From assembly GCA_965203055.1 (NCBI GenBank), contig OZ241863.1:3034545-3098544 (forward strand): a stretch of 64,000 nt of DNA. The letters are read 5' to 3'. A model generated the notes under the pieces. That model saw only the letters and a program-made list of their open reading frames with translations. It was not told the DNA's origin and did no database searches. Within the stretch, counting starts at the first letter, position 1. Each line of letters starts with the position of its first letter. Source of the DNA: Spirochaetia bacterium. GTDB taxonomy: Bacteria; Spirochaetota; Spirochaetia; SZUA-6; Bin103. The position numbers and the translations under genes were made by a program. Of the stretch, positions 5,250 to 25,529 are shown piece after piece.

Positions 5250-7067
5250 TCACTGGCTGGCGACCAGGGTACCGTCGCGCCCGACGGCGAGGAGCCGGGA
5301 ACCGTTCCAGGCAACGCTCAGGAGCGGAGTCGGGATCACGGGACCGGCCGCCTGCGCCCAGGAGATGCCGTCGCTGCTGTGCAGCACCACCGCGCCGGTG
5401 TATGCGCCGTCCCGGTCTTCGGTCTCGCCGACGGCGACGAAGCGCGTCCCGTTCCAGATCACGTCGTAGAGAAAGTGAGTCACCGGGGAGGGACTCGCGG
5501 TCCAGTCGATCCCGTCGCTGCTGCGCAGGATCGTGCCGCCCTCCCCGACCGCGACGAACTGCGCGCCGCCCCAGGCGAGGCCGTCGAGAATGTTCTCCGT
5601 CGGCGAGGCCGCCGCCGTCCAGTCGCTGCCGTCGCCGCTGTAGATGACCGCTCCGTCGAACCCTACCGCTACGAAGCGGGAACCGTTCCACTCCACGTCG
5701 GTAAGGTGGCTCGACACCGGGCTGGCGGTCTCGCTCCAGTGCACGCCGTCGTCGCTGCGCAGGATGATGCCGTCGCCGTCGCCCCAGTTCCCGCCCACGG
5801 CGACGAAGCGCGCGCCGTCGGTGGCGACCGCCTGCAGCGGTACGGCCTTGTCCGGCGTCGCCGCGGCCGTCCAGACGATCCCGTCGCTGCCGTACAGGAT
5901 GGTGCTGCCGCGCCGCCAGTAGCCGCCGACCGCGACCAGGCGGGCGCCGTCGCCGGCCACGTCGAACAGCCGCTCCGAGGTGGGGCTGACGGCCGCGGTC
6001 CAGGCGCTGCCGTCGCTGCTGTAGGCGATCGTGCCGTCGAACCCCACGGCGATGAACCGGGAGCCGGTCCAGACCACGGCCTCCGGCAGGTTCACCACCG
6101 GCTTGGCCGCGGCCGTCCAGACGATCCCGTCGCCGCTATGCAGGATCGTGCTGCCCATCCCCACCGCCGCGAAGCGGGCGCCGCTCCAGGCCACGCCCCA
6201 CAGCGGCTCCGGCGTCGGGACAGCGGCTGCGGTCCAGGTCGTGCCGTCGTCGCTGTAGAGCGCGGCGCCGTCGAACCCGACCGCGACGAAGCGCTCCCCG
6301 CCCCAGGCGGCGCCGTAGAGCCAGGAGGTAACCGGCGTGGCGGCGGGCACCCAGACGACCCCGTCGGCGCTGGACAGGATCACGCCGTTCGTCCCCGCGG
6401 CGAGGAAGCGGGAGCCGGCCCACGCCACGCTGTTGAGGCGCACCGCCGTGGGGCTGGGCACCGCGCGCCAGGCGCTGCCGTCGCCGCTGACCAGCACGGT
6501 GCCGTCCAGGCCTACCGCGACGAAGCGCCCGCCGCCCCAGGCCACCCCGCGCAGATCGTGTTGCGTCGGATTTGTGGCGGCGGTCCAACTGCGGCCGTCG
6601 CCGTATACGATCACCCCGTCCGAACCGACCGCCGCGAAGCGCCCGCCGCCCCAGGCCACGGCGCGCAGATTGACGTCGGTCGGGCTCGGCGCCGCGGTCC
6701 ACGCCAGCCCGTCGCCGCTGCGCAGCGTCACGCCGCGATTGCCTACCGCGACGAAGCGCCCGCCGCCCCAGGCCACCCCGCTCAGCGTGTCATGCACCGG
6801 CGCGGCGGCCTTCGCCCACTCGATCCCGTCGCTGCTGTGCGCGATGCCGCCGAACGACCCGACCGCGACGAAGCGCGCGCCGTTCCAGACCACCTCCCGG
6901 AAATGGGACGAGGCGCCTTCCCGCATGATCCTCCAGTCGCCTTCCGCCTGCTGCCCGCTGGTCTCCGCATACCCCGCCGCGGCCGCCGCCAGCATGATGG
7001 CCAGCGGACCAATGATCTTCAGGAAAGAGAGCCGCGGCGCTGCGGAGCGCGCTCGCGCCAAGTCCAT
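5250..7067 (-). CDS. secreted BNR/Asp-box repeat beta-propeller protein
   Basis: About 13 repeats of roughly 40 aa, each with an Asp-box SxDxGxxW (SSDGIDWT, SDDGTTWT, SGDGSAW) plus VAWGGGRFVAVG. Signal-peptide-like N-terminus MDLARARSAAPRLSFLKIIGPLAIMLAAAAAGYA. Start chosen at the internal Met at 7067, not the 7637 ORF-track start, which would overlap the + strand ATPase. Confidence 0.7.
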   Translation of the reverse strand: MDLARARSAAPRLSFLKIIGPLAIMLAAAAAGYAETSGQQAEGDWRIMREGASSHFREVVWNGARFVAVGSFGGIAHSSDGIEWAKAAAPVHDTLSGVAWGGGRFVAVGNRGVTLRSGDGLAWTAAPSPTDVNLRAVAWGGGRFAAVGSDGVIVYGDGRSWTAATNPTQHDLRGVAWGGGRFVAVGLDGTVLVSGDGSAWRAVPSPTAVRLNSVAWAGSRFLAAGTNGVILSSADGVVWVPAATPVTSWLYGAAWGGERFVAVGFDGAALYSDDGTTWTAAAVPTPEPLWGVAWSGARFAAVGMGSTILHSGDGIVWTAAAKPVVNLPEAVVWTGSRFIAVGFDGTIAYSSDGSAWTAAVSPTSERLFDVAGDGARLVAVGGYWRRGSTILYGSDGIVWTAAATPDKAVPLQAVATDGARFVAVGGNWGDGDGIILRSDDGVHWSETASPVSSHLTDVEWNGSRFVAVGFDGAVIYSGDGSDWTAAASPTENILDGLAWGGAQFVAVGEGGTILRSSDGIDWTASPSPVTHFLYDVIWNGTRFVAVGETEDRDGAYTGAVVLHSSDGISWAQAAGPVIPTPLLSVAWNGSRLLAVGRDGTLVASQ

Positions 7068-7196
7068 CACTGCTGTGTGCAAGAAATCCTCCGTCGGGAC
7101 CAGTAACGGCCAGCGCGGCCAGCGCCGGCAGCGGCAATTGCCGGCCGCGCACCTATCTTGAAGAAAATGCACCAGCCATGCAACTATGGAGAAACC

Positions 7197-8384
7197 ATGA
7201 GCCACGTCAAAGAGCTCAAGCAACACAGCCGACAGGAAGCGCAGGCAGGGATGTCGGACAACGGCGCATCGGCAGGTCCGCGACCGCGGCTGAAGAGCGT
7301 CAAGGTCAAGGGGTTCCGGTCCATCAAGGAGATGGATTTGGAGATGCGGCCGCTCAACGTCTGCATCGGCGCCAACGGCGCAGGAAAGAGCAACCTCATC
7401 GCGTTCTTCAAGCTGATAAACGAAATGATGGGCGGACGACTCCAACAATACTTCGGCACGACCGGACGGGCCACCGCCAATCTGTACTTCGGACCCCGCA
7501 TAACTCCGCAAATGGAGGTGGAGCTGGACTTCGAGGTCGATAGAGGAACCAACGCGTACCGCATGAGGCTCGTTCACGCGGCCGATGACTCGGTGATCTT
7601 CGCCGATGAGTCGGTCTCCTTTCACCAGGAAGGCCATGATCTGCCTCAGCTAATGTCGTTGGGCGCCGGGCATCAGGAGACGCGTATCAGAGAGGACTCG
7701 ATATACGATCCTCTCCCGAATACCCTGAGGCACCTATTGAGTCACTGCCGCGTGTACCACTTCCACGATACGTCGCAGACTGCGCGCGTTCGCCAGTACT
7801 GTTACGTTGAGGACAGTAAGTGGCTCATGCCCGATGCAGCGAATCTTGCCGCCGTTCTCCATCGGCTGAAGACCGAGAACGAGCTGGTCTACCGGCAAAT
7901 CGTGAGGAACGTGAAACAGGTAGCGCCGTTCTTCGTGGACTTCGATCTCCAGCCTTCCGGGCGCAACAAGACCGACATCATTCTCAACTGGAGACATAGA
8001 GATTCCGATCTGGTATTTGGGCCGCATCAGCTATCCGATGGCACCTTGCGCGCAATCTGCCTGATCGCGCTGCTACGGCAGCCACACGAGGACTTGCCGT
8101 ACCTGATCGTGGTTGACGAGCCGGAGCTCGGTTTGCACCCGCATGCGCTCGACATGATCGCTTCGTTTTTTCAAGCCGCGAGCGAGCACGCCCAAGTGCT
8201 CATCAGCACGCAGTCCAGCGCGTTCGTCGACGCCTTCGATCCCGAGGACATCGTGGTGGTCGAACGAGACTGCGAAGCCACGACATTCACGCGACCCGAC
8301 GCCGAGAAACTCGGCGCGTGGCTGGAAGACTACTCGCTCGGCGAAGTATGGGAAAAGAACGTCATAGGCGGCGGACCGCACTGA
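7197..8384 (+). CDS. AAA_21/ABC-type (OLD/AbiLi/AriA-like) ATPase
   Basis: Walker A GANGAGKSN, signature-like LSDGTLRAI, Walker B LIVVDEPELGLHP. GGAG sits 7 nt before the ATG at 7197; alternative starts are 7158 (TTG) and 7251. The stop overlaps the next gene's start (TGATG). Confidence 0.8.
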   Translation: MSHVKELKQHSRQEAQAGMSDNGASAGPRPRLKSVKVKGFRSIKEMDLEMRPLNVCIGANGAGKSNLIAFFKLINEMMGGRLQQYFGTTGRATANLYFGPRITPQMEVELDFEVDRGTNAYRMRLVHAADDSVIFADESVSFHQEGHDLPQLMSLGAGHQETRIREDSIYDPLPNTLRHLLSHCRVYHFHDTSQTARVRQYCYVEDSKWLMPDAANLAAVLHRLKTENELVYRQIVRNVKQVAPFFVDFDLQPSGRNKTDIILNWRHRDSDLVFGPHQLSDGTLRAICLIALLRQPHEDLPYLIVVDEPELGLHPHALDMIASFFQAASEHAQVLISTQSSAFVDAFDPEDIVVVERDCEATTFTRPDAEKLGAWLEDYSLGEVWEKNVIGGGPH

Positions 8385-9070
8385 TGCCCCGGCTCCACCT
8401 GTTCGCCGAGGGCCGTACGGAACAGGTCTTCGCTACCCAGGTGCTGCAACCGCACTTGGCGAATTTCGACGTGTGGCTGCATAATCCGATGTTGGTGGCT
8501 CACGCGCGTAAGAAGGGCCGCACCCATCGCGGGGGAGGCCGGCATTTCGAGCCAATGCAGAACGACATCATGCGGCGCCTCAAGGAGGACGCCAACGCCG
8601 ACGTGTACTTTACGACGATGGTCGATCTGTACGCATTGTATAACGACTTTCCTGGGCGCTCGGAGGCAGAGAAGGTGCGTGCCGATCCCTATAAACGTGT
8701 GGCGTCGCTCGAAGAATCATGGCGGAAGAAGACCGCGGACAATCGCTTCATCCCTTACATTCAGTTGCACGAGTTCGAAGCGTACCTGTTTGCCGACGTG
8801 TCGAAGTTCGCCGAGTGGCAATGCCCGATCCCTGCAATCACCGCGTTGCAGAACGTGGTTAACGAGGCGAAGTCTCCGGAGAGGATCGACGACGGGCAAC
8901 ACACCGCGCCATCCAAGCGGATTATCGCCCGGTTCGGTAAGTACAAGAAATTGAAGACCACCATAGGCCCGCAGATGGCAGAGATGATCGGCTTGTCGGC
9001 CATCAGGGCGAAGTGCCCTCACTTCCACGAATGGATCAGGCGGTTGGAGCGGCTCGGAACCGGCGTGTAA
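8384..9070 (+). CDS. DUF4276-family protein (possible TOPRIM-like effector), translationally coupled to the ATPase
   Basis: About 228 aa starting MPRLHLFAEGRTEQVF. Its length and conserved N-terminal Glu resemble DUF4276/RloB/AbiLii-type partners of AAA_21 ATPases. This family call is from memory, not a search. Confidence 0.6.
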   Translation: MPRLHLFAEGRTEQVFATQVLQPHLANFDVWLHNPMLVAHARKKGRTHRGGGRHFEPMQNDIMRRLKEDANADVYFTTMVDLYALYNDFPGRSEAEKVRADPYKRVASLEESWRKKTADNRFIPYIQLHEFEAYLFADVSKFAEWQCPIPAITALQNVVNEAKSPERIDDGQHTAPSKRIIARFGKYKKLKTTIGPQMAEMIGLSAIRAKCPHFHEWIRRLERLGTGV

Positions 9071-9073
9071 CGG

Positions 9074-11899
9074 TCATGAACGCGCCGCGGCGGCGAGGAG
9101 GTCGTGGACGTCTTCGGGGGTTCTCGACACGGCGCATGACCAGCGGCCGAAGCCGCCGTGGTCGGTTACGGCGGCGCACCACTCCTTGAGATACGTGCGT
9201 TTGGCGCGGTCGCCGTCGCGGTCCAGGCCCTTCACTTCCATGACCAGCATGTCTCCGGTCGTGAGCCGGATCAGGAAGTCGGGGCGGTACTTGCGGACCA
9301 CGCCGCGGTGCACGTAGAGCACCTCGAAGCCGAGATGATCGTTCTTCACCCAGGCGTCGACCGCCGGGTGGTGGTCGAGGGCATAGGCTTCCGATGCCTC
9401 CCAGGCGCTGTCGTACACGCACAGGTTGACGTGGCTGCGATCCGTGTGTTCGCACGGCTTGCCGGTGTACCAGGTGAGCATGTCGCCGGTCGAGCGGATC
9501 GGGTGATCGCGGTCGAAGATCGGCGCCAGCCGTTCCGCGTTCTGGAAGCGGATCGCCTGCAGGAGATGCTGCACGACCTTGGTCATGTTGAGCATCAGCA
9601 TGAGCCGCCGCTTCACCGCGTCGCAGGCGAACGCCGCCGGTTCGATCACCACCCGGTCCGACTGGAGCAACTGCTCAGTGAGGCGCACCAGTTGCGCGAC
9701 GAGCGCGGCCCGGTTTCCGCGCCAATCCGGCCGCATCTCGTCGTAGACCTGCTGCGCGGTCTCGAACACGATGCTTTGCAGACGGCGCTTCCGCGCCAGA
9801 CGTTGCAGGTCGATCGTCGCGATCCTGGTCAGGTCGGGCTTGCCCTCCACGACCGGCGCCAGCTCCGCGACCCCGGCGGTCTGCGCCGCGGAGAGCGCCA
9901 GCGGTTCCACGTCGTCCCAGTCCACGGTCAGATGCGGTCTGAGCACGCGGTCGACGCGCACCACGTTTGGCCACGAAAGCGCGAACCGCTCCTTCTCCCG
10001 GACCGGTTCGATGGCGGTCTTCGGCAGCGGCGGCGGCGGCACCCCGGCCCGCGACTCGTGCGGCAGGAACGTGAACGGCACGCCGAAGACGTTCACGTAC
10101 TCCGGCTCCAGCAGGCCGGTTTCGTCGCTGACGTCGTAGGCGGTGCGGCGCAGCCCGCGGCCGATCACCTGTTCGCACAGCAACTGGCTGGCGAAGGCGC
10201 GCAGGCCCATGATGTGGGTCACGGTCTTGGCGTCCCACCCCTCGGACAGCATGCCGACCGAGATCACGTTCTGTATCCGTTCGCCGGGACCGCCGGCGCG
10301 GCCCACCGTATCGACCTGCCGGCGCAGCAGTTCGGCCCGCTGCCGGGCGTTCAGCCGGCGCCTTTGGCCCGCTTGACCGCCTGCCTCGTCCTGCGCGCCG
10401 GGACCGCCGGCGTCCGCGCCATCTTCGCCGACGGCCGCCAACGGCTCCGCGGCGGCCTCGGCTTCGGCCAGCGTCTTCGAGTCGATATGCAGCGTGCGCT
10501 CGGGATCGCACAGCTCCGCGATGCGGATGCTGCCGCGCGCGAACGCGTGCCGGACGCGCGCCGCGGTCTCGGTGCGGTTGGCGACGGTGATCATCGCCGG
10601 CGGCGTCGGGAACCCCAGCGCCGCCCACTGCCGGGCGGTCTCGCGCCAGTCGTACCCCAGGAAGTAGTAGCCGTTCAGCACCAGGTCCGGCAGCGGGTCG
10701 GTAGGCGCGGCCCGGCGGTTCAGGTCGTCCCTTACCTCCGGGTCGTTGTAGATGTGGTAGAAGCGGGAGCGGTAGGTCCGCGCGTCGGGCGCCGCATCGT
10801 CGCGCACCACCACGCGCGGCGTCTTGACCAGACCCGCCTCGATGGCGTCGTTCAATCCGAAGTCGCTCACGATCCAGTCGAACAACGCCTCCTCGGAGCT
10901 GCTCCTGCCGGACGGCACGAACGGCGTGGCGGAGAAGTCGTAGCAGCGCAGGATGCCGCGCGCGCGGTGGATGCGGTCGAGGCCGCCGATCCACTTGGTG
11001 GCGGTTTCCAGGTCGGCCTTGGCGATGCCCCTGGTCGCGGACTGTTCGGAGATGCGCCAGGCGTGGTGCGCTTCGTCGTTGATGACCAGCAGGTCGCGGG
11101 CCGCGGCGAGGTCGCCGAGTACCGCGCGGACGTAGGCTTCGTCGCTCACGGCGCCGCGCTTGTCGACGCTGCGCCGCCGCGCGACCTGCGCCTCGGTCTC
11201 CCAGTTGAGCGCGTGCCAGTTGCGGACCACGACCCGGCCCAGGCGCAGCTTGTCGAGCAGCGCGGACGGGACGATGCGGAACTGCCGGTAGTAGTTGTCG
11301 GGGTGCGGCGGATCGAGGACCGCCAGCCGGCTCTTGACGGTGAGGCCGGGCGCGACCACCAGGACGTTGCGGGAGAACCGGCGGTCCTGCGGATAGGCGG
11401 CCTTGTTCAGCACCTGCCAGGCGATGACCATCGCCATGACCACGGTCTTGCCGGTGCCGGTCGCCATCTTGGCGCACAGCCGGGGGAATGCGCCGCCGTC
11501 GCCGGGAACGTCGATGCCCACCCGGTCGGCGGCCGGCGCCTCGCGCAGCCACATCAGGGTCTCCACCGCCTCGAGCTGGCAGAAGAAGAACCGGCGCGAA
11601 TCGAACTCCTCCGGGTCGGTCCAGTGCGCGAGCAGCCGCCGGGTCACGGTGGAGGCGCCGGGGTAGCCGGCGGTCCGCCATGCCTTGACGCGCGGGCGGA
11701 TGGCGTTGACCAGCGGAATCTCGACCGTGACGCCCGGATCGTCGAACGCCCGCGAGTCGGGCGAAGCGATGACGTATCCCGCCGGCCGGCGGCCCGGCGC
11801 CAGGTCGAACAGCCGCGTCGCCCGGTCGTACCGCCAGTGCCGCGCCGGCTCCTCATACGGCGAGTTGACCGTCAGCCGGTCGATGGTGGTTTGCGCCAC
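9074..11899 (-). CDS. res: type III restriction endonuclease Res subunit (SF2 helicase + C-terminal PD-(D/E)xK)
   Basis: 941 aa with ATGTGKT (Walker A) and INDEAHH (DEAH box). C-terminal nuclease-like motif DMLVMEVKG. Directly downstream of mod and the nucleotidyltransferase. Confidence 0.85.
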   Translation of the reverse strand: MAQTTIDRLTVNSPYEEPARHWRYDRATRLFDLAPGRRPAGYVIASPDSRAFDDPGVTVEIPLVNAIRPRVKAWRTAGYPGASTVTRRLLAHWTDPEEFDSRRFFFCQLEAVETLMWLREAPAADRVGIDVPGDGGAFPRLCAKMATGTGKTVVMAMVIAWQVLNKAAYPQDRRFSRNVLVVAPGLTVKSRLAVLDPPHPDNYYRQFRIVPSALLDKLRLGRVVVRNWHALNWETEAQVARRRSVDKRGAVSDEAYVRAVLGDLAAARDLLVINDEAHHAWRISEQSATRGIAKADLETATKWIGGLDRIHRARGILRCYDFSATPFVPSGRSSSEEALFDWIVSDFGLNDAIEAGLVKTPRVVVRDDAAPDARTYRSRFYHIYNDPEVRDDLNRRAAPTDPLPDLVLNGYYFLGYDWRETARQWAALGFPTPPAMITVANRTETAARVRHAFARGSIRIAELCDPERTLHIDSKTLAEAEAAAEPLAAVGEDGADAGGPGAQDEAGGQAGQRRRLNARQRAELLRRQVDTVGRAGGPGERIQNVISVGMLSEGWDAKTVTHIMGLRAFASQLLCEQVIGRGLRRTAYDVSDETGLLEPEYVNVFGVPFTFLPHESRAGVPPPPLPKTAIEPVREKERFALSWPNVVRVDRVLRPHLTVDWDDVEPLALSAAQTAGVAELAPVVEGKPDLTRIATIDLQRLARKRRLQSIVFETAQQVYDEMRPDWRGNRAALVAQLVRLTEQLLQSDRVVIEPAAFACDAVKRRLMLMLNMTKVVQHLLQAIRFQNAERLAPIFDRDHPIRSTGDMLTWYTGKPCEHTDRSHVNLCVYDSAWEASEAYALDHHPAVDAWVKNDHLGFEVLYVHRGVVRKYRPDFLIRLTTGDMLVMEVKGLDRDGDRAKRTYLKEWCAAVTDHGGFGRWSCAVSRTPEDVHDLLAAAARS

Positions 11900-11911
11900 T
11901 ACCCCGGTTCC

Positions 11912-12220
11912 CTACTCATAGATGGTCTCTGCCGACTCCAGTATCGCCCGGCGGCGCAGGTGATTGCGGCTGCGCTCGACGCCGCGGCGGCTGACGAGAT
12001 CGACGTCCCGTCCGAATAGCGAGCGGAGTTCTTCCTCCATTTGGTGCAGGTCGAACAGCGTGTGGCGTGCGCTTTCGTCCAGGCTGACCAGCACGTCGAC
12101 GTCGCTTTCGGGTCCGAAGTCTTCGCGGAGCACCGAGCCGAACAGCGCGAGCTCGACCACGTTCCAGCGCTTGCAGAACTCGGCGAGCGCGGCGCGGTCC
12201 AGCGGTATCGCCTCGATCAT
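11912..12220 (-). CDS. MNT/MntA-type minimal nucleotidyltransferase (Pol-beta fold), nested between mod and res
   Basis: 102 aa with the core NTase motif LFGSVLREDFGPESDVDVLV. It is 8 nt downstream of the mod stop and 10 nt upstream of the res ATG. No HepT/DUF86 partner was found nearby. Confidence 0.8.
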   Translation of the reverse strand: MIEAIPLDRAALAEFCKRWNVVELALFGSVLREDFGPESDVDVLVSLDESARHTLFDLHQMEEELRSLFGRDVDLVSRRGVERSRNHLRRRAILESAETIYE

Positions 12221-12230
12221 GTCGTCTCGG

Positions 12231-14810
12231 TCATGGCCGTGACGAACCGTTGAGCGGGATCACCTTCAGGCTTTCGATGCCGCGGTCGTCGACGATCTTG
12301 ACCGCGGCCCGCTCGTGGGCGCCCGGCGCGAACGGCAGGGAGACGGTGCCGTGGTAGGCGGCGATCAACCGCTCGTCGATCTCGGTGCGGAGGCTGCGGG
12401 CGAGGCGCTTCCAGCCGTCGCGGGGGGAACCGGCCATGGGGAAGAAGACCTGGCGCGGAAACAGGCTGCGGCCGTCGTAGTCCGGGTCCAGCATCCACAA
12501 GGCGATGCGGTCGCCGCCGCCCGATTCGAGGCCGCCGGTGCGGGTGTTGTAGTAGTCGAACCCGTGCACGGCGACGCGCAGCTTGCCGGCGTGCTCGCCC
12601 GCCTCGATCCGCTCGACTTCGACTTCCGGCTGGCCGATCAGCCAGAAGCTCTCGTTGCCGGCGCGCTTGCGCTTGAGGTCGTCGGTCAGCAGGTCGGCGT
12701 TCATCTGCGCCTTGAGCAGGGTGACGCTCGGCCAGTTGGTCTCGTCGATGTCCTTGGCGGCTTCCGGGTCGAACTGGAAGGCGGCGAATACCAGGACGGT
12801 CGGCCGCGGCACCAGCGTCAGCGATTCCTCCAGGGCGCGGGTTACCTGGCGCTGCTCCAGCGGCGCGTGGTCGGGGCCGAACGAGACCACCGCCCGTTGC
12901 GCGTGATAGGCGGTGCCGGTTTCGCGGACGCGGTCCGCCCCGGAGGAGTCCGGGCGCGTGTCGCCCTCGGCGTGCAGCCAGCGGGTGCCGGGCAGCGGCT
13001 CGACCCGCGCGAAGGAGATGCGCTGGCCGGCCTTGCCGCGGATGCCGGTCTTCAGCAGCTCGTCGCGCCAATCGCCCTGCCGCAGCGTCTCGCCGGAGCG
13101 CGCGATCGACTCGTCAGCCGGCTGCTGCGGCGCTTCCAGCTCGTCGAGCGGCTGAACGGTTGGCGCGGGGACCGCCTCGACGGTGAAGGGGCCGGTGACG
13201 CGCGCCTTGCGCCGGTCCGGTTCCGGCTGGTCGTAGAGGATGGTCTCGACGGGCGGCTCGTCGTAGCCCAGGATTCTTGGCGAAACGGTGGCGACGCTGC
13301 GGTAGCGGAGCCCTGAGCCGATCCCTTCGTCGGGATGGGCCAGCTCGTAGTAGTCGAAGTTCGCGGTCATCAGCCGCTGGCGGGCGATGGCGACGGCCAC
13401 GCGCGAGGTGTCGCAGGTGATCCACCGGCGGCCCCACTGCTCCGCGACGTACGCGGTGGTGCCGGAACCGCAGGTCGGGTCGAACACCAGATCGCCGGGA
13501 TCGGTCGTCATGAGGATGCAGCGCTGAATCGCCTTGGCGGCGGTCTGTACGACGTACCGCTTGTCGGTGGGGGACATCGGCGCGGCCCAGATGTTGTTGA
13601 TGCGGCGCCCGGGCACTTCGTCTTCGTACCGCTTCCACATGAGCGAAGATTGCCCTTCCAGCGCTTCCAGCCGTCCCAACTCGGCCAGTCGATCCATACC
13701 GGCCGCGGAAATCGCCCAGTGGCGATCTCGACCACAACGAAAGACTCGTCCGTTCCATTCGTACGGTTCGGAACGCCCGGTCGTGGAGACACCCTGCGAA
13801 TCGAGCGGCATGCGCCGGTAGATACGTGCCCTTTTCGGAAGATTCTCGTCCGGGTCGAAACACTCTTCGGGCGTCGGTTTACGACAATGGCCGTCCGGCA
13901 ACTCGACCATGACGTGCCAACTGAAGGATTCGATCACCTCGGCGCGCGTGAGCAGCTCGTACAACTGGCGGTACTTGGTATGCTTCCGGTCCTTGGCGTA
14001 CCACAACAGATAGTCGGCGACCTCCGACAACGTCGTCGTCGAACTGGCGCCGGTCGTGGCGTACGAAATCGTCGCCATCCGGTTTTCGGCGCCGAAGATC
14101 TCGTCCATGACGAGGCCGGCGCGGTGCACGTTCTCGGGACCGATCTGCACGAAGCAGCTTCCGCTCTCGTGCAGCAACTCGCGCGCCAGCAGCAGGCGGT
14201 CGCGGAGATAGGCGAGATAGGAGTGGATGCCGAGCTCCCAGGTATCGCGGAAGGCGCGGATCTGCTCCGGTTCGGACGTCAGGTCCGCGTCCCGGCCGTC
14301 GGTGACCTCGCGCCGGTTCACGAACGGCTGGAAGTTGGAGCCGTAGCGGATGCCGTAGGGCGGGTCGAGGTAGACCGTCTGCACCCGCCCGCCGAGCCCT
14401 TCCTTCTCCAACAGGCTGTTCATCACCAGCAGGCTGTCGCCGGCGATCAGGCGGTTGCTCCAGTTATGCCGGTGGCGGTAGAATTCGATCGCCTGTCGGA
14501 TCGGCGGGTTCTCCTCGGGCGCGTCGAACAGCGAGCGCTGCCCCTCCGCGCCGTTGCGCCGGCGCACCGCCTCGACCACGGTGCGCGGGTCGATGCGCTC
14601 GTGCACGTGCAGCGAGACCGTCGGCACCGTGAACGAGGTGTGCTCGGCCTTCCCCGCCCAGTCGAGCCGCGGCTCCAGGTGCGGATCGTAGGCGTAGGCC
14701 GCCGCCCCCGCGTCCCGGTCGGTCTCCGGCGTCACCAGCCCCACCGGCGGATTGTTCGCCCGCTCCTCGGTATGGGCGTAGCTCTCGATCTCCCGCTTGC
14801 TCTTCGCCAT
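12231..14810 (-). CDS. mod: type III RM Mod subunit (N6-adenine/N4-cytosine DNA methyltransferase)
   Basis: 859 aa with motif IV DPPYGIRY and FxGxG-like motif I DPTCGSGTT. The N-terminus MAKSKREIE... is homologous to the second Mod at 57289. Confidence 0.85.
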   Translation of the reverse strand: MAKSKREIESYAHTEERANNPPVGLVTPETDRDAGAAAYAYDPHLEPRLDWAGKAEHTSFTVPTVSLHVHERIDPRTVVEAVRRRNGAEGQRSLFDAPEENPPIRQAIEFYRHRHNWSNRLIAGDSLLVMNSLLEKEGLGGRVQTVYLDPPYGIRYGSNFQPFVNRREVTDGRDADLTSEPEQIRAFRDTWELGIHSYLAYLRDRLLLARELLHESGSCFVQIGPENVHRAGLVMDEIFGAENRMATISYATTGASSTTTLSEVADYLLWYAKDRKHTKYRQLYELLTRAEVIESFSWHVMVELPDGHCRKPTPEECFDPDENLPKRARIYRRMPLDSQGVSTTGRSEPYEWNGRVFRCGRDRHWAISAAGMDRLAELGRLEALEGQSSLMWKRYEDEVPGRRINNIWAAPMSPTDKRYVVQTAAKAIQRCILMTTDPGDLVFDPTCGSGTTAYVAEQWGRRWITCDTSRVAVAIARQRLMTANFDYYELAHPDEGIGSGLRYRSVATVSPRILGYDEPPVETILYDQPEPDRRKARVTGPFTVEAVPAPTVQPLDELEAPQQPADESIARSGETLRQGDWRDELLKTGIRGKAGQRISFARVEPLPGTRWLHAEGDTRPDSSGADRVRETGTAYHAQRAVVSFGPDHAPLEQRQVTRALEESLTLVPRPTVLVFAAFQFDPEAAKDIDETNWPSVTLLKAQMNADLLTDDLKRKRAGNESFWLIGQPEVEVERIEAGEHAGKLRVAVHGFDYYNTRTGGLESGGGDRIALWMLDPDYDGRSLFPRQVFFPMAGSPRDGWKRLARSLRTEIDERLIAAYHGTVSLPFAPGAHERAAVKIVDDRGIESLKVIPLNGSSRP

Positions 14811-14844
14811 CCCCGTCCCGCATCCAGTCTACGCCAACCCACGA

Positions 14845-15605
14845 ACCATCGGGTAGAGTCGCGCCGGCGTCCCGCTCAGCCATGCCGGCCGCTGGAGAAC
14901 TGCGGGGGTGACCAAGCTCCTCGGCGTGTCGTCAGGTCCCGTCGCCGCCTGCCGCGGCCGCGCCGTTGGGTTGGCTCTTGAGCTTCTGATACTCCTGCTC
15001 GCCAATTCCGGTCGCCCGCTCGATCAACGACCAGTCGACGCCGGTCCGCAGGAAACCGTCGATCGTCTCCAACCGCCCCTCGCGCTGGCCGTCGCGGTGC
15101 CGCTGTTCGGCAACCGCTCGCATCTCGTTACGCATCTGGTCGCGCATCTGGTCGCGCCCTTCCTGGCGCAGCCGCTCGCCGCTCGTCATCAACTCCCCTC
15201 CTGCCGCTGTGCGGCTCAGTATATCGCCCATCGCCTCGGGCGTGTCTTCAGGCCCCGTCTCCGCGATATAGTGCATGAACATCTTCATGTCGTCCTGACC
15301 GCCGCTTCCTTCCCGCTCCAAGTCGTCCAGCAGCGGCCGCATCCGCGCCCGTGCCTCCCGCACCGCGCGGCTGAAGGCGTGCATCATCGTCAGTTGCAGC
15401 AACCGCGCCCGGACGCTGCCGGCCGCCTGCGCCGGCGACATTTGAGTCTGGTCGAACAGCACGTGCTCGAACCGGGGCAGCCATGGCCAGTCCCGCGTTG
15501 CGGCCGGAAACAGGTCAGCGAACTGCGGGGAGTGCTGCCAGCCGGTGGGACCCTGGTAGAAGACCAGCGGCAGGATCGGGCGCAGGTAGCCGGAATAACG
15601 GGCCG
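14845..15605 (-). repeat. repeat copy A: remnant of an Rpn-family (YhgA-like, transposase_31/PDDEXK_7) element
   Basis: About 95% nucleotide identity to 23115-24190. It encodes only the C-terminal roughly 220 aa of an Rpn protein (YLRPILPLVFYQGPTGWQ...GRLETIDGFLRTGVDWSLIERATGIGEQEYQKL). The nuclease core is absent. Confidence 0.7.
14932..15600 (-). pseudogene. truncated Rpn-family recombination-promoting nuclease/putative transposase (C-terminal fragment)
   Basis: Translation matches the Rpn C-terminal region only. Upstream, in-frame sequence is non-homologous read-through that the ORF track merges into a 624 aa artefact. Confidence 0.65.
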
Positions 15606-15743: not shown

Positions 15744-16859
15744 TCAGGAGGAGTAGGGATCGGCGGCGTCGCGCAGGCCGTCGCCGAGGAAGTTGTAGAG
15801 CAGCACCGTAATCACCACGAAGATGCAGGGGATGAGCAGCCACGGCTGACTCGCCACCGCCTGGAAGTTCTGCGCGTCCTGCAGCAACGTGCCCCAACTC
15901 ACCGCCGGCGGCTGGATGCCGAGCCCCAGAAAGCTCAGCGCGGTTTCGCCCAGGATCATCGCCGGAATCGCCAGCGTCAGCGACACGATGATGTAGCTCA
16001 GGAACGACGGCAGCAGGTGCCCGAAGATGATGGCGCGTTCGGGCGCCGCCGACACCACCGCGGCCATCACGAAGTCCTCCTCCCGCAGGGACAGGAAGCG
16101 GCCGCGCACCACGCGCGCGAGCTGGGTCCAGCCGACCAGCGACAGGATCAGCGTGATGGCGAAGTAGGTGGTGAGCACGCTCCACTGCCGGGGTACCGCC
16201 GCGGCCAGCCCCATCCACAGCGGAATGGTGGGAATGGAGGACAGCAGGTCGACCAGCCGCATCACCACCCGGTCCGCGATGCCGCCAAAGTAGCCGGCCA
16301 GCCCGCCTAGCAGCACTCCCAGAACGGTGCTTACCGCCACCCCCACCAGGCCGATCGACAGGGAGATGCGGGCGGCGTGGAGCACCCGCGAAAACAGATC
16401 GCGCCCCAGCCGGTCGGTACCGAACAGAAACAGGGGCGCCCCGTCTGCGGCTTCCGCGTCCGGCACGAACAGATGCGCGCGCGTCTTGAACAGGCCCCAG
16501 AAGCGGTACTCCTCGCCGGCGCCGAAGAACCGGATCGGGTAGCGCCGCTCGCGGTCGAGCTCGTAGATCTTGCGCATCGTGTAGGGGTGGCGCTCCTGCC
16601 GCAGGCCGTACACGTACGCCCCGCCGGCGCCGCCGGCCAGTCGGATGAGATTCGGCGGCGCGTTCAGGTAGTCGGGAAAGCGCGTGGTCACCCCGTACGG
16701 GGCGACGAAGTCCGCAAACAACGCCGCCGCGTACATGAGCGCCAGGGCGGGGCCCGCCACCAGCGCCAGCCGGTGGCGGCGAAACTTCCACCACATCATG
16801 CGCCACTGCGACGCGACGTAGTAGCGGTCGTCGGCGCCCGCCCGCGCGCGCGTGCTCAC
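15744..16859 (-). CDS. peptide/nickel ABC transporter permease (OppC/DppC-like)
   Basis: 371 aa with multiple TM segments and the EAA-loop region typical of OppC. Its ATGA overlaps the upstream permease. Confidence 0.85.
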   Translation of the reverse strand: MSTRARAGADDRYYVASQWRMMWWKFRRHRLALVAGPALALMYAAALFADFVAPYGVTTRFPDYLNAPPNLIRLAGGAGGAYVYGLRQERHPYTMRKIYELDRERRYPIRFFGAGEEYRFWGLFKTRAHLFVPDAEAADGAPLFLFGTDRLGRDLFSRVLHAARISLSIGLVGVAVSTVLGVLLGGLAGYFGGIADRVVMRLVDLLSSIPTIPLWMGLAAAVPRQWSVLTTYFAITLILSLVGWTQLARVVRGRFLSLREEDFVMAAVVSAAPERAIIFGHLLPSFLSYIIVSLTLAIPAMILGETALSFLGLGIQPPAVSWGTLLQDAQNFQAVASQPWLLIPCIFVVITVLLYNFLGDGLRDAADPYSS

Positions 16860-17854
16860 GACTCGAGGCGATCGAACCGGATGCGGGGATCGACCCAGGC
16901 CAGCACGATGTCCGAGATGAGGTTGCCGACCAGCACCAGGACGCTGAGGATCAGCACGAAGCTGCCCGCCAGGTACATGTCCTGCGCCTGCAGCGCGCCC
17001 AGCAGCACCGGCCCGGTCGTCGGCAGATTGAGCACGATCGAGGTGATGGTCGCGCCGGAGATGATCGCCGGCAGCAGCCAGCCGATGCCGCTGATGATCG
17101 GGTTGACGGCAAGCCGCACCGGATACTTGAACAGCAGCCGGCCTTCACCGACCCCCTTGGCGCGCGCGGTCACCACGTACTGCTTGCGCAGCTCGTCCAG
17201 CAAGGTGCCGCGCATGACGCGGATCAACCCCGCCATCCCCGCGGTCCCGACCACCAGGACCGGCGCCCAGAGCCGTTGCAACATGCTCCACACCCGCGCC
17301 AGACTCCACGGCGCGTCGACGTACTCGGGCGCGAACAACCCGGTAATGGCGACGCCGAAGTAGCGGAACGCAATCCACAGGAGCACCAGCGCGAGCAGGA
17401 AGTTCGGGATCGCCAGCCCCACGAATCCCCAGAAGGTCCAGAAGTAGTCGAAGAAGGAATACTGCCGCACCGCCGAATAGACGCCGATCGGCACCGCCGT
17501 CAGGTAGGTGAAGATCAGGGTCGAGATGGTCACCACCAGCGTCAGTCCGATGCGCTCGCCGATCACGGCGGACACCGGCCGGTCATGGGCGAAGGACCAG
17601 CCGAGGTTGCCGCGCAGCACGATGTTGCGCAGCCACAGCAGGTACCGGGTATGGACCGGCTTGTCCAGGCCGTAGTAGGCGGCGAGATTGGCCACCTGTT
17701 CGTCGGTGACCCGGTTCCCCTGGATCTCCAACTGCAGCATGTACGAGCTGAGATAATCTCCCGGCGGGAGCTCGATGATCGCAAAGCTCACCGCCGAGAT
17801 CAGGAACAGGAGCGGCACGAAGGCCGCCACCCGGCGCGCGACGTATTCAAGCAT
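16856..17854 (-). CDS. peptide/nickel ABC transporter permease (OppB/DppB-like)
   Basis: 333 aa starting MLEYVARRVAAFVPLLFLISAVSFAIIELPPGDYL, a typical OppB N-terminus. The 1240 aa ORF in the track is a read-through artefact. Confidence 0.85.
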   Translation of the reverse strand: MLEYVARRVAAFVPLLFLISAVSFAIIELPPGDYLSSYMLQLEIQGNRVTDEQVANLAAYYGLDKPVHTRYLLWLRNIVLRGNLGWSFAHDRPVSAVIGERIGLTLVVTISTLIFTYLTAVPIGVYSAVRQYSFFDYFWTFWGFVGLAIPNFLLALVLLWIAFRYFGVAITGLFAPEYVDAPWSLARVWSMLQRLWAPVLVVGTAGMAGLIRVMRGTLLDELRKQYVVTARAKGVGEGRLLFKYPVRLAVNPIISGIGWLLPAIISGATITSIVLNLPTTGPVLLGALQAQDMYLAGSFVLILSVLVLVGNLISDIVLAWVDPRIRFDRLES

Positions 17855-17877
17855 GTCCCCGCCGGGGCGCGGCGCGG

Positions 17878-19800
17878 TCAGTTCCCGTAATAGAGCTGCT
17901 CCGCGCTGTAGATCACCCACTGCGCCACGCCCTCGGTAAACACGTTGCGCAGTTGCCGGTTGACGATCAGCACGGTAGCCGGATTGTAGGTCACGTTGAT
18001 CTGCGGGATGGTCTCGAAGAACGTCTGCCGGTAGCGGTCGACGATCTCCTGGTCCCACGGGATTCCGGGACCGATGCCCAGGCCCAGGTCGTACAGCTCC
18101 CGGAACCACGCCGGCGGCTCCTCGCCCTGTTCGCCGCCCGACCGGTACCACTGCCGCCACGGCGGAATGTGGTTGATCAGGTGGTCCTTGGCATGGCCGA
18201 AGGCATGCAGCGTGGTCGCCTCGTTCCACAGCGTGTCGATCTGGTACTGGTTGGCGTTGCGGCGCTCTATGAACAGGCCGATCTCCACCACCCCCAGGGT
18301 GGTATACAGCCCCACCGCGCGGTAATGCTCGACGACCAGCTCGTTGGCCGGCACCGTGTCCGGCAGGTGCGCGGTCACCTCCAGGGCGATCTCGAAGCGC
18401 GACCCGTCGGGCGCCAGACGCCAACCGTCGGCGTCGCGCTGGTCCAGGCCCACCGCATCCAGCAGCCGATTCGCCTCCTCGGGATCGTAGGCGGCGGGAA
18501 TCCACTCCGGCGGCGACGCGAAGCCGTAGTACACCGCGTCGATGATCTCGCCGCGGTCGATCGCCAGGTTCAGCGCTTGGCGGAAGCGCAGGTCGCCGGC
18601 GAGCCGGCGCCACGTCGGGTCCTCGTAGCCGAAGTTGAAGGCGTGCACCACCGGGTTGTAGGCGACCCCGGAGGTGAGCGCCCGGTACCCCTTGTCCTCG
18701 TTTTCGCGGTAGAGCGGCAGGGACGATATCTTCGCCAGCTCGTCGGCCAGGTCGACCTCCCCGGCGATGATCTTGAGGCTGGCGCCCTCCGGACCCTCCA
18801 CCTTGGTGCTGACGATGCGGTCGATGTAGGGAAGCTGATTGCCGGCGGCGTCGACCTTGAAGTAGTAGGGGTTGCGCTCGAACACGGTCTGCGTCGGCGA
18901 GGTGCCGGTCACCACCCACGGATGCAGCACGGGAATGTCGACCACGTCCGGGGTCTTCGCTTCCCAGGGCGTGAGCATCTTGATCTGGAACAGGCGCGGC
19001 CACTCGTCGGCCAGCAGATCGGCGGCCGCGACCTTGGCCGCCAACTCCTCGGCGTCGGCGAAGTTGGCGTGGAACTGGGACAGGTAGTGCCGGGGCTGCA
19101 AGAAGCCGGTGTAGTCCATCCACGGCTTGTCGATTTCGTCCAGGAACCCGGGCGTCGGCGCCGAGAAGGTGATGCGATACGAGTAGTCGTCGATCACTTC
19201 CAGGTCGTAGACGTCCCCGGTGGGGCGCAGCCCGGAGCGGTACTGCCAGCCGACGTTGGGGGTGAGCTGCTCGTTGAGCAGGATCTCCTCGTAATGGAAC
19301 GCCACGTCCGCCGTGGTCAGCGGTTCGCCGTCCGACCAGCGCATGCCGCGGCGCAACTGAAAGGTGAACGTGGTGCCGTCCGGACTGATCTCGTAGCTCT
19401 CGTAGATGTTGCCGGTAAGCGGATGCCCCATGCTGATCCAGCCCGGCCGCGCCAGCAGCGTCTCGATGGTCATGAAGTACATCTCCGGCGCGAAGTTGGG
19501 CGCCAGGTTGATCAGCCGCACGTCGCCGCCGTAGGCGCCGATCGCCAGCTCGTCGAGCATGCCGTCGGGAGCGGCGCTCCGTTCCAGCGTGAGCACCAGC
19601 GGGTTCTCCGGGAGCCGCTCGTTCACCGGGGGCAGTTCGCCGGCGGCCACGCGCGCCGCCAGCAGCGGCGCTTCCTGATAGCCTCCGGCGCCGGTCGCGG
19701 CGCTCATGGGGGCGGCGCCTGCGGACTCTTCCTGACCGGTCGCCGCGGCCAGGACGCTGCCCGCCAGGAGCAGCGCAACTGTCATCAACACTCGATTCAC
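17878..19800 (-). CDS. ABC transporter substrate-binding protein, family 5 (peptide/oligosaccharide)
   Basis: Signal peptide (M)NRVLMTVALLLAGSVLAAA. A GTG at 19800 is preceded by GGAGG; an alternative ATG is at 19785. Family-5 SBP-like length and composition. Confidence 0.8.
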   Translation of the reverse strand: MNRVLMTVALLLAGSVLAAATGQEESAGAAPMSAATGAGGYQEAPLLAARVAAGELPPVNERLPENPLVLTLERSAAPDGMLDELAIGAYGGDVRLINLAPNFAPEMYFMTIETLLARPGWISMGHPLTGNIYESYEISPDGTTFTFQLRRGMRWSDGEPLTTADVAFHYEEILLNEQLTPNVGWQYRSGLRPTGDVYDLEVIDDYSYRITFSAPTPGFLDEIDKPWMDYTGFLQPRHYLSQFHANFADAEELAAKVAAADLLADEWPRLFQIKMLTPWEAKTPDVVDIPVLHPWVVTGTSPTQTVFERNPYYFKVDAAGNQLPYIDRIVSTKVEGPEGASLKIIAGEVDLADELAKISSLPLYRENEDKGYRALTSGVAYNPVVHAFNFGYEDPTWRRLAGDLRFRQALNLAIDRGEIIDAVYYGFASPPEWIPAAYDPEEANRLLDAVGLDQRDADGWRLAPDGSRFEIALEVTAHLPDTVPANELVVEHYRAVGLYTTLGVVEIGLFIERRNANQYQIDTLWNEATTLHAFGHAKDHLINHIPPWRQWYRSGGEQGEEPPAWFRELYDLGLGIGPGIPWDQEIVDRYRQTFFETIPQINVTYNPATVLIVNRQLRNVFTEGVAQWVIYSAEQLYYGN

Positions 19801-19926
19801 CGTGTTCCTCCGTCTCTCGGTCGGTCGTCGGTCGATGCAGCCCAGTATATGCCGGTCCCGCTGCGCCCACAATCGGCGGGGCAGCGGTCAGCAGCGGCCA
19901 GCGGTTACCTGCCTCAAGCGTTACCG

Positions 19927-22900: not shown

Positions 22901-22965
22901 GCGGTCAGTTCGACGGCGGCGGCCGCCGGCCCGACCGGCCAGCGCAGCGCGGTGCCCGCGGTCAC
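19927..22965 (-). CDS. large glycoside-hydrolase/lyase-like protein (beta-sandwich + (alpha/alpha)6-like region), function unclear
   Basis: 1012 aa. Co-oriented with the SBP and permeases and rich in Trp/Tyr in the style of carbohydrate-active enzymes. No firm family call is possible by eye. Confidence 0.4.
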   Translation of the reverse strand: MTAGTALRWPVGPAAAAVELTAGIDIRQNRYRGWHPVAGAWDSRSVPFNVHDTGQVRPNGTAFGMQPALGAFPGQGAVTGFQGRRLVNSKNRNLGTLIGELQSEVFTIAGAGIDFLIGGGDFADVTCLNLYVNGAAGWERVRSATGERNLELVRRGWDVAEFRGRQAYLQILDYAPVEPWGWHAAPRYPEDDWGFILVDDIRQTDGAPSPRRVDEAGDRARNFDFETLLPERFTVTAAQGVDGAGGAGGLFEIRDRSRGGVVGSLYCDAAVAPCAADLWRVSVTWRYRGTALSGVKLLLTSRLPIAAAHARHTLHPGLLYDGNPTAEACHYLGEDFPEAASTLPAGFSVEDAERVCAGWAAPQRRAADAAASVRLQVDPESGRYEAVHQVPESAVFGRRLLLDSDERLTLEDGARYAKTLYLYAAARRRGAVYRPGYCGALSAAWRQLYPDSPTNPPHTLRADCDLRLRTMLDDRGLMQEITRGGRTYRVFYVGRWVYGDAPAGDGRFLPKEYFHRFVGFSWSGMAGLAAHAALDHGLRHDDGGAVRVAVDTLDFFAEHGISPLGILYPTYHEDHAGIVDAFGTYYDPGRIDVGPLGEGLYWYLRCAERFRRHGSEPPRSWLPAVRGSLDRIMELFPDADVPGRIDGATGKPAARRIRLLYWERSRWTDRQTRAADIRFLKPSERGATNFIYLIWAYVRAARHCNEQRYLDYAVRLGELALQVMERFAVFAGSEMDFYNIDKRQGHALLAAHNDLYAATGDRRWLAAAEVAASWFGSWQYHYNVRTDGLEHLPLGRWDYRTVGGTTVDVKYSTNNLVYAQGAAELMRLWRHTADPEWFERARALLHQGVQSSLTEEKRRWLNAHYQSEARVPAQHAFNPDTRFDAACLGGGTEDVLPAWPYRGNWTTKYGAILSMYMLAEGLDVDPILARYGDVTCRLGDAPQRDWVGALETVDRVRAWRSGGAVVIEARNMVPAAARYTARVLDAGGRPVAEASADFGPGAGGRIRVPLTG

Positions 22966-24190: not shown

Positions 24191-24287
24191 CAGATGCGGC
24201 AGCAGTAGCCGGGCGGCGGTGGCGGTGCCTGACCCGCTCGGAGTATGGTGGCAGTGGATCGCGGCGTCCCGATCCAGGCGTTCAATC

Positions 24288-25467: not shown

Positions 25468-25529
25468 GGCGCGGGGCAGCTTGGTACGGATGATGCGGAA
25501 ACAACGCGTTGTTTGTACTATGGGAGTCG

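Follow-up and report, generated by a model that had tools for sequence, protein, structure and literature searches.

An intact ABC ATPase-DUF4276 gene pair in a Spirochaetia genome is a member of the HEC-01 family of candidate defence systems

What kind of system is encoded by two overlapping genes that lie next to a restriction-modification (RM) operon in the genome of a Spirochaetia bacterium, and is it a new one? The genes occupy positions 7197 to 9070 of the window, by which we mean the whole 64,000-nucleotide (nt) stretch of DNA that was analyzed (assembly GCA_965203055.1, contig OZ241863.1, positions 3,034,545 to 3,098,544 of the forward strand). The original prediction, made from the letters alone, described them as an ATPase and a DUF4276 protein forming a candidate antiphage pair. 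The PADLOC check that it proposed gave a clear answer: the HEC-01A model PDLC04175 matched the first protein at 5.3e-139 (461 bits, with residues 31-394 aligned to positions 5-362 of the 363 in the model), and the HEC-01B model PDLC04188 matched the second one at 1.7e-73 (residues 1-224 aligned to positions 12-226 of 230). The pair, whose proteins are called A and B below, contains the same two proteins as HEC-01 in the same order, an ABC ATPase and then a TOPRIM/DUF4276 protein. It is therefore a clear HEC-01 member, real but not new.

HEC-01 (Hma-embedded candidate 01) was described as an ABC ATPase and TOPRIM pair by Payne et al. in 2024 (bioRxiv 10.1101/2024.01.29.577857), and in the alignment of these authors HEC-01B shares Bp OLD's metal-binding site. 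In the analysis of the Menshen system, DUF4276 and RloB were assigned to the Toprim superfamily and DUF4276 was linked to Mad4, and the PARIS paper included DUF4276-partnered ATPases in its AAA15/21 tree. Members of HEC-01 have been tested by two groups with opposite outcomes, and further surveys keep the system as an unvalidated candidate. Since it had already been catalogued, assigned to the Toprim/OLD proteins and tested twice, the module is not new, and its earlier description as under-characterised has to be qualified. The features of the pair were as follows.

7197..8384, + strand: HEC-01A, ABC-type (AAA_21/AAA_15) ATPase, 395 amino acids (aa) plus stop
7368..7391, + strand: Walker A / P-loop GANGAGKS of A, residues 58-65, read from the sequence
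8031..8045, + strand: ABC signature-like motif LSDGT of A, residues 279-283
8109..8141, + strand: Walker B and downstream His of A, VVDEPELGLHP, residues 305-315 (VVDEPE at 8109-8126)
8319..8381, + strand: conserved C-terminal tail of A, WLEDYSLGEVWEKNVIGGGPH, about residues 375-395
8381..8386, + strand: stop/start overlap cTGATG, in which the A stop TGA (8382-8384) and the B ATG (8384-8386) overlap by 1 nt
8384..9070, + strand: HEC-01B, DUF4276 protein, putative nuclease effector, 228 aa plus stop
8408..8422, + strand: E9-G-x-x-E13 of B, where strand b1 ends, candidate counterparts of E400 (Toprim Glu) and E404 (metal-B helper) in Bp OLD
8528..8539, + strand: R49-G-G-G52 glycine-rich loop of B, conserved, in a region that the model cannot place
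8624..8632, + strand: D81-L-Y83 of B, end of strand b3, with the first DxD Asp retained and a Tyr as the second
8768..8779, + strand: H129-E130-F-E132 of B, following strand b4 directly, candidate counterparts of T506-x-E508 in Bp OLD, which bind metal B
9014-9034, + strand: C-P-H-F-x-x-W motif near the C-terminus of B, residues 211-217, invariant down to 36% identity

The first gene had been presented as a 396 aa ATPase. The ATPase assignment was upheld by Pfam (AAA_21 at 8.5e-24, plus AAA_15), and the length was corrected to 395 aa, the figure of 396 being obtained when the stop codon is counted. Its ATG at 7197 is preceded by GGAGA at 7188-7192, 4 bases 5' of the start codon, and the public annotation of a sister contig, made independently, contains an identical product of 395 aa. 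The protein was 100% identical on two independent contigs and near-identical on several more. The Walker A, LSDGT and Walker B motifs recognized at the outset were all present, and their conservation was high among 40 homologues of A: G58, N60, G61, G63, K64 and S65 were invariant in Walker A; Q278, D281, G282 and T283 were invariant in the signature region, with L279 and S280 nearly so; and D307, E308, P309, E310, G312, L313, H314 and P315 were invariant in Walker B and its extension. Together with a Q-loop and an ABC head fold, these motifs place the protein among the ABC ATPases of the SMC/Rad50/OLD clade. The top structural matches were SMC and Rad50 heads, with RecF and RecN recovered too, and Ts OLD was the best match by sequence in the PDB (2.3e-11). 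Most homologues of A measure 365-368 aa versus 395 aa here, and an extension of ~28 residues at its N-terminus is specific to the lineage. This stretch had a predicted local distance difference test score (pLDDT) below 50 in the predicted model and was swapped for other sequence in the closest genome, the Spirochaetia metagenome-assembled genome (MAG) L001 (OZ241907.1). The conserved core begins near residue 29, RPRLKSVKVKGF, and the L001 core starts there too.

The two genes behave as one unit. The coupling proposed from TGATG was seen at 8382-8386, and this one-base overlap of stop and start indicates translational coupling. When one genome per species was scanned, 385 loci with a relative of HEC-01B were found, and the best 80 of the 385 were kept. 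A homologue of A was located directly upstream of B in 79 of these 80 loci, and the 1-nt overlap was observed in each of the 76 fully alignable junctions (TGATG in 46, TAATG in 26 and TAGTG in 2; in the remaining 2 the B start extrapolated back gave no recognisable start codon). Relative to the window proteins, A and B varied in identity together (Spearman 0.83, n=71), as expected if both genes are inherited and diverge together. L027 has no A and a truncated B, and in L062 and L068 A is disrupted.

The proposed size and family of the second protein, which begins MPRLHLFAEGRTEQVF, were both confirmed. It has 228 aa, and Pfam DUF4276 (PF14103) matched it at 3.4e-52 with 177.9 bits against a cut-off of 30.2, over the full length of the profile (residues 8-222 on positions 1-192 of 192). 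RloB, also named among the families to be checked, gave no match. The protein consists of an OLD-like Toprim domain at about residues 1-137, followed by a C-terminal helical domain. The predicted model contained the alternating beta-alpha core of the Toprim fold, with four strands in a three-layer alpha/beta arrangement, including a strand at 3-8, a helix at 11-26, strands at 74-81 and 122-127 and a helix at 131-137. The best fold matches were the C-terminal regions of Bp and Xcc OLD, not RecR. No real match was obtained for B in profile searches of all PDB sequences, with either the close or the divergent alignment, and its link to solved Toprim structures is therefore through the predicted fold only.

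Conservation in B was judged over two sets of homologues, 36 close ones and 38 divergent ones, with identities as low as 36%. The residues E9, G10, E13, G51, D81, E130, E132, P176, K191, C211, H213, F214 and W217 were invariant, and Y83, H129, S177 and R179 nearly so. The TOPRIM-like character assigned to the protein held for the predicted fold and for the conserved N-terminal Glu, since E9 is the invariant Glu that follows strand b1, but not for the DxD motif: D81 is invariant and the second position is a Tyr, Y83, conserved at 90% or more across the family. The ligands of metal A in Bp OLD are E400 and D455, with D457 acting via water, and metal B is bound by E508, aided by E404 and T506, while K562 reaches in from the helical domain (PMC6755086). 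The same order of residues was found in B: E-x3-E, then D, then a residue-x-E past the last Toprim strand and a basic residue in the helical half, the pair E9/E13 having the same +4 spacing as E400/E404. Because this order and these spacings match Bp OLD, B would have an OLD-like two-metal site, in which the E130-x-E132 following b4 may compensate for the lost Asp of DxD.

Two further conserved stretches were poorly modelled. In the tail of A, with the pattern LGE[IV]WEKNVIGGGP, the residues W375, Y379, L381, G382, E383, W385, K387, N388, G391 and P394 were invariant among the 40 homologues, and residues 381-395 had a pLDDT below 50 despite this strong conservation. In B, R49, G50, G51 and G52 were invariant among close relatives, and residues 41-50 had a pLDDT below 50. 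The tail of A is a candidate docking element for B, and the RGGG loop is perhaps an interface or substrate loop. Speculatively, these two elements, conserved yet modelled as disordered, are candidates for the A-B interface and may become ordered only in the A-B complex or on the substrate. The C-P-H-F-x-x-W motif of B had no assignable counterpart in OLD, and could pack against the Toprim sheet or form a metal site.

Taken together, the module is probably a split OLD/PARIS-like system, in which an ATPase acting as sensor and regulator releases or activates an OLD-type Toprim nuclease upon infection. This reading builds on the domain identities, predicted folds and conserved motifs, the obligate pairing and coupling, the mobility and the partial association with defence genes; the protection reported for one HEC-01 member and the requirement for the related Mad3/Mad4 in MADS defence speak for it as well. 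A is an SMC/Rad50-type ABC ATPase, and B, as modelled, is built like the C-terminal region of OLD, with a Toprim and a helical domain. Through the one-base stop/start overlap both proteins are made together; they would then form a complex. By analogy with AriA-AriB of PARIS and with OLD and Gabija, the ATPase might hold the nuclease in an inactive state or away from its substrate, until a cue from the infection alters its nucleotide state or its assembly. B could then cut nucleic acid at the two-metal site suggested by its conserved residues, with E9 and D81 as candidate ligands of metal A, E13 and E130/E132 as candidates for metal B, and K191 or the APSKR motif as the candidate basic residue from the helical domain. 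DNA is the substrate of OLD and GajA and tRNA that of AriB, and that of B may be either. Infection would end in the destruction of the phage nucleic acid or in the growth arrest of the infected cell; abortive infection has been shown for no HEC-01 member. The best explanation is that the module works on its own.

Several points weigh against this reading. In E. coli, the representative of Payne et al. failed to protect against the phages of their panel (10.1101/2024.01.29.577857). The favourable result, protection of E. coli B by another representative, picked at random, against at least one of T4, T5 and T7, comes from a report that gives little detail (PMC12881386, Nature Communications 2026). 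Nuclease activity, a complex or a trigger has been demonstrated for no HEC-01 member. The equivalence between the residues of B and those of Bp OLD was drawn from order and spacing, not from superposition, and the catalysis of B could be different or weaker because its DxD is D-x-Y. Moreover, homologues of HEC-01B were found in 0 of 50,697 phage records, unlike PARIS, and about 80-88% of the neighbours of related HEC-01 loci were housekeeping genes (nearest gene on each side, given here and below as raw fractions without a matched genomic background).

The set of systems to which the pair had initially been compared (OLD, PARIS, Gabija and AbiL) was the correct superfamily. The models of AbiLi, AriA, Old, GajA and mad3 matched A far more weakly or in part, and no model of their partner proteins matched B. 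The closest solved relatives of both halves were OLD proteins of Class 1 (P2 Old, Ts OLD) and Class 2 (Bp/Xcc OLD, GajA). The ATPase and the Toprim domain are fused in OLD Classes 1-3, whereas here they are two open reading frames (ORFs), a split kept in 76 of the 76 alignable loci, and the second Asp of DxD is replaced by Tyr. PARIS, a Class 4 OLD-like system, combines the ABC ATPase AriA with the DUF4435 Toprim nuclease AriB. By contrast, B is a DUF4276 protein with no match to the AriB hidden Markov model, and AriA models covered A only in part (1.2e-22 on residues 241-345 and 3.4e-17 on 32-73). PARIS is typically carried by phages or satellites; a phage-borne origin of this kind was considered for HEC-01B and rejected, given the lack of matches in the phage collection. 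The Ocr trigger and the tRNA target belong to PARIS and are not known to hold for the pair. As for Gabija, GajA models matched A in parts (6e-18), and no UvrD/GajB-like helicase gene adjoins the pair in the window.

MADS, a system validated by experiment, also contains an ATPase and DUF4276 pair, Mad3/Mad4, and the PADLOC mad3 model spanned the whole of A (8.5e-21). Membership in MADS, an eight-gene operon with mandatory Mad6-8, was rejected: A reached 97.9 bits against a cut-off of 420 with the NCBIfam MADS3 model, and the partner genes were missing, with no mad6-8 match among the ten neighbouring proteins scanned with PADLOC. B matched no Mad4 model and had no NCBIfam match. AbiL resembles the pair in joining an AAA_21-type ATPase to a small Toprim-superfamily protein, and the AbiLi model matched A at 8.6e-24, but B has no AbiLii or RloB match. 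Menshen has three genes and carries DUF4276 as a fusion with NsnC, whereas B is free-standing. Finally, HEC-01 was defined inside Hma systems, and the pair in the window is convergent to a type III RM operon rather than nested in Hma. This embedding was a criterion of discovery, not a definition by sequence. Most close relatives of the window pair were found among housekeeping genes, with one HmaB in the upstream and one HmaC in the downstream tally of the 80 related loci, which were counted separately.

The distribution of the family was wide and patchy. Copies of B with 55-76% identity were found in Spirochaetia, Binatia, Latescibacterota, Acidobacteriota, Planctomycetota, Gemmatimonadota, Cyanobacteria and Gammaproteobacteria, a scattering over phyla that requires horizontal transfer of HEC-01. 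At 90% identity the HEC-01B family comprised 5,455 clusters, and at 50% it had 3,368 representatives. Thirteen plasmids carried pairs that are more distant (32-37% identity) and are annotated as a DUF4276 family protein and an AAA family ATPase, and on an 11 kb mobilisable Acinetobacter plasmid such a pair adjoins VapBC.

The neighbours of the related loci were also tallied. Upstream they were mostly transporters, epimerases, amidases and similar housekeeping genes, and about 12% matched defence models (DUF1156 methylase, type III methylase, HmaB, HKD+Snf2, DrmD and IetA-like). Downstream about 20% were defence genes, mostly of RM type and including seven Type IIG enzymes, with single cases of a type III restriction endonuclease (REase), HmaC, DrmD, a GajB-like helicase, a PLD-helicase, RTasHel (a DRT-type reverse transcriptase-helicase) and a second HEC-01. 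Type III RM genes adjoin the pair in L049, L067 and further related loci. The context signal of HEC-01 is thus modest, since most neighbours are housekeeping genes, and in the subclade of the window the association with methylase-based defence is limited to a minority of loci, the pair otherwise standing alone. Among 72 downstream neighbours, a Type IIG REase-methyltransferase (1e-89) was found in 7, and mad2 matches, tallied as a set, in 8. This suggests a recurrent three-gene cassette of A, B and a Type IIG enzyme, reminiscent of mad2-mad3-mad4.

A co-directional gene of ~1,100 aa, starting at the stop of B or at most ~30 nt after it, was observed in eight loci from several phyla (L004, L009, L010, L017, L023, L032, L040 and L042), at about 10650-14050 in each. 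An embedding of the pair in a Type I RM system (hsdM-hsdS-[A-B]-hsdR), prompted by gene sizes of ~770 and 287 aa upstream and ~1,115 aa downstream in many related loci, was rejected, because the Pfam tallies identified the upstream genes as transporters, epimerases, amidases and the like and the downstream genes of ~1,115 aa as Type IIG / Type_ISP_C + N6_Mtase proteins (7/72 loci).

The surroundings of the pair in the window contained the following genes.

5250-7067, - strand: protein of 605 aa with no confident family and a weak partial DUF6242 match, divergent to HEC-01A
9074..14810, - strand: type III RM operon, context outside the module, identified by Pfam and PADLOC
9074-11899, - strand: Res of the type III RM
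11912-12220, - strand: MNT-type nucleotidyltransferase of 102 aa (NTP_transf_2, PADLOC PDC-S09), between mod and res
12231-14810, - strand: Mod of the type III RM, 859 aa (MTase_III 1e-148)
24051-25160, + strand: Fic-domain protein (PADLOC SoFic 3e-34)
25509-26915, + strand, and 62421-63581, - strand: two AAA_14+DUF4143 ATPases, the one scanned with PADLOC matching candidate system PDC-S01 at 1e-121
53118-53804, + strand: RadC-like JAB protein, with an unannotated ORF of 246 aa next to it
54638-56146, + strand: Schlafen AlbA_2 + HATPase_c_4 + Fic-like_C protein of 502 aa, just upstream of the second type III RM
57289-59247 (Mod) and 59593-62364 (Res), + strand: second, unrelated type III RM (MTase_III 9e-120, REase_III 6e-17)

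The claim that a type III RM system abuts the pair was correct: the genes of B and Res are convergent, with 3 bp between their stop codons. The GC content at third codon positions (GC3) was about 0.75 in the pair and 0.90-0.92 in every flanking gene, Mod and Res included, so the codon composition of the pair is foreign. Window positions 7269-14862, from the core of A through Mod, aligned to L001 as one block at 95.7% identity. The left flank of this block was entirely different in L001, and the left flank of the window was recovered at 97.7% on the sister metagenome contig L081. Both the pair and the type III RM therefore belong to one co-inherited block of 7.6 kb, and in this lineage they are either transferred or retained jointly. 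The different codon compositions and the convergent orientation speak against a common operon and against a long shared history, and the best explanation for the position of the pair is the clustering of defence genes with co-transfer, not a shared operon. No convincing + strand promoter was recognized upstream of A with an E. coli-type consensus, which is uninformative for this organism, and no terminator was found in the 3 bp gap between B and Res. Direct or inverted repeats bounding the pair or the 7.6 kb block were also sought, and only short chance-type matches for high-GC DNA were obtained.

In L001, the start of A overlaps the stop of tyrS (tyrosyl-tRNA synthetase) as ATGA at 8850-8853, and the HEC-01 block may there be read through from this housekeeping gene. 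On L081, a complete HepT-MNT toxin-antitoxin (TA) pair lies at 14703-15336, at the spot of the MNT gene (window 11912-12220). About 316 bp carrying HepT are missing in the window and in L001, leaving an orphan antitoxin-like gene. The Mod gene of L081 was called as two ORFs (257 and 566 aa) versus the single ORF of 859 aa in the window.

On the left side, the DNA of the 605 aa gene is internally repetitive (offset self-matches of 63-73% identity from about 5430 to 6900), and an SNF2+DUF3670 helicase and a SWIM-domain gene lie beyond it. On the right side, diverged YhgA-like (Transposase_31) copies at 14861-15402 and 23125-23970 bracket a block of ~8 kb with an oligopeptide ABC transporter (about 15744-22965). 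This block is lacking in L001, where a single Transposase_31 copy is followed by the Fic gene, and it resembles the product of a rearrangement or an insertion brought about by the repeated YhgA-like element. The gene at 54638-56146 was also considered as a pAgo (PADLOC 2e-21), and this was rejected as Pfam detected no Argonaute domains. The location in a defence island that had been claimed for the pair holds insofar as several defence genes are present; with housekeeping genes interspersed among them, 'defence-rich region' is a fair description and 'tight island' a generous one.

This context bears on whether the pair could instead be an accessory of the adjacent methylation system, a Mad3/Mad4-like restriction arm that uses the Mod methylation to tell self from non-self. 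The common 7.6 kb block with its variable left flank, the type III RM systems next to the pair in L049, L067 and other loci, and the genes directly downstream of B elsewhere (Type IIG in 7 of 72, mad2 matches in eight loci, a co-directional ~1,100 aa gene in eight) all speak for it. In MADS, moreover, the homologous ATPase is needed for defence and not for methylation: mad3 and mad4 are required for defence, and methylation depends on mad2. Against this, the pair and the RM operon are convergent and therefore not co-transcribed, the type III RM of the window already has its own Res, and the GC3 values point to separate origins. In addition, RM genes are absent next to the pair in about 80% of the related loci, on small plasmids it stands by itself, and the MADS3 score lay far below its cut-off, with no Mad4 match for B and no MADS gene among the neighbours scanned. 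Such an accessory role is consequently regarded as unlikely. That HEC-01 is not fully autonomous, and plugs into an adjoining N6-adenine methyltransferase system as a minimal MADS-like, methylation-aware restriction unit, is likewise improbable; it is kept alive at low probability because of the recurrent adjacency to methyltransferase-containing systems. The partner would then be the type III system in the window and the co-directional Type IIG / mad2-like gene in about eight loci, and the nuclease would be an OLD-type Toprim in which the second Asp of DxD was swapped for Tyr and an E-x-E was recruited after b4.

A selfish role was also weighed. If B were a toxic nuclease checked by A, and the pair were maintained since its loss is lethal to the cell, it could be mainly an addiction or stabilisation module of the TA type, with no real anti-phage role. 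The patchy, horizontally transferred distribution, the carriage as standalone cargo on small plasmids beside VapBC, the Pfam name of AAA_21 ('putative AbiEii toxin, Type IV TA system' domain) and the lack of phage protection in one of the two tests (10.1101/2024.01.29.577857) fit this possibility, which nevertheless appears rather improbable. A different member did protect against phage (PMC12881386), the neighbours were enriched for RM-type defence genes and not for plasmid maintenance (again in tallies without a matched background), and OLD, Gabija, PARIS and MADS, the related ATPase-Toprim systems, are genuine defences without exception; besides, addiction does not preclude abortive infection. 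RecR and other repair proteins use Toprim domains, and the structural matches of A to SMC/Rad50 heads, RecF and RecN would suit a housekeeping function in repair or recombination, with a RecF/Rad50-like ATPase and a RecR-like partner. The foreign codon composition, the sporadic presence with close copies scattered over phyla and on plasmids, the absence of any NCBIfam repair equivalog match (recF reached 28 bits against a cut-off of 172) and the greater similarity of B to the C-terminal region of OLD than to RecR make this very unlikely. It is hardly credible that the window copy is an inactive remnant of a decaying, horizontally acquired cassette. The damaged loci L027, L062 and L068 among the relatives speak for it, as does the lack of a convincing sigma-70-like promoter upstream of A in the scan with the E. 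coli-type consensus. Both ORFs and the coupling overlap are nonetheless intact, every family-invariant catalytic or motif residue is present, and A is conserved without change on two independent contigs and nearly so on several more.

Therefore, what the window adds is a clean and intact HEC-01 example, from a Spirochaetia-like genome of high GC content, rather than a system of a new kind. HEC-01 ranks with the more abundant candidates for defence in environmental genomes, being in the top 12 defence types of cold-seep MAGs (PMC12881386), and the two published tests of it disagree. The family gains features that can be tested: the universal 1-nt coupling; the residues E9, E13, D81, E130 and E132 in a D-x-Y site; the two conserved, disordered interface candidates; and a minority but recurrent association with methyltransferase systems. 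If the methylation-aware possibility were true, the ATPase and DUF4276 pair would be a portable 'restriction arm' that MADS, Hma and classical RM have in common. Should the split-OLD model hold, the PARIS-type design, an ATPase scaffold that releases a Toprim nuclease, would extend to a much larger chromosomal family.

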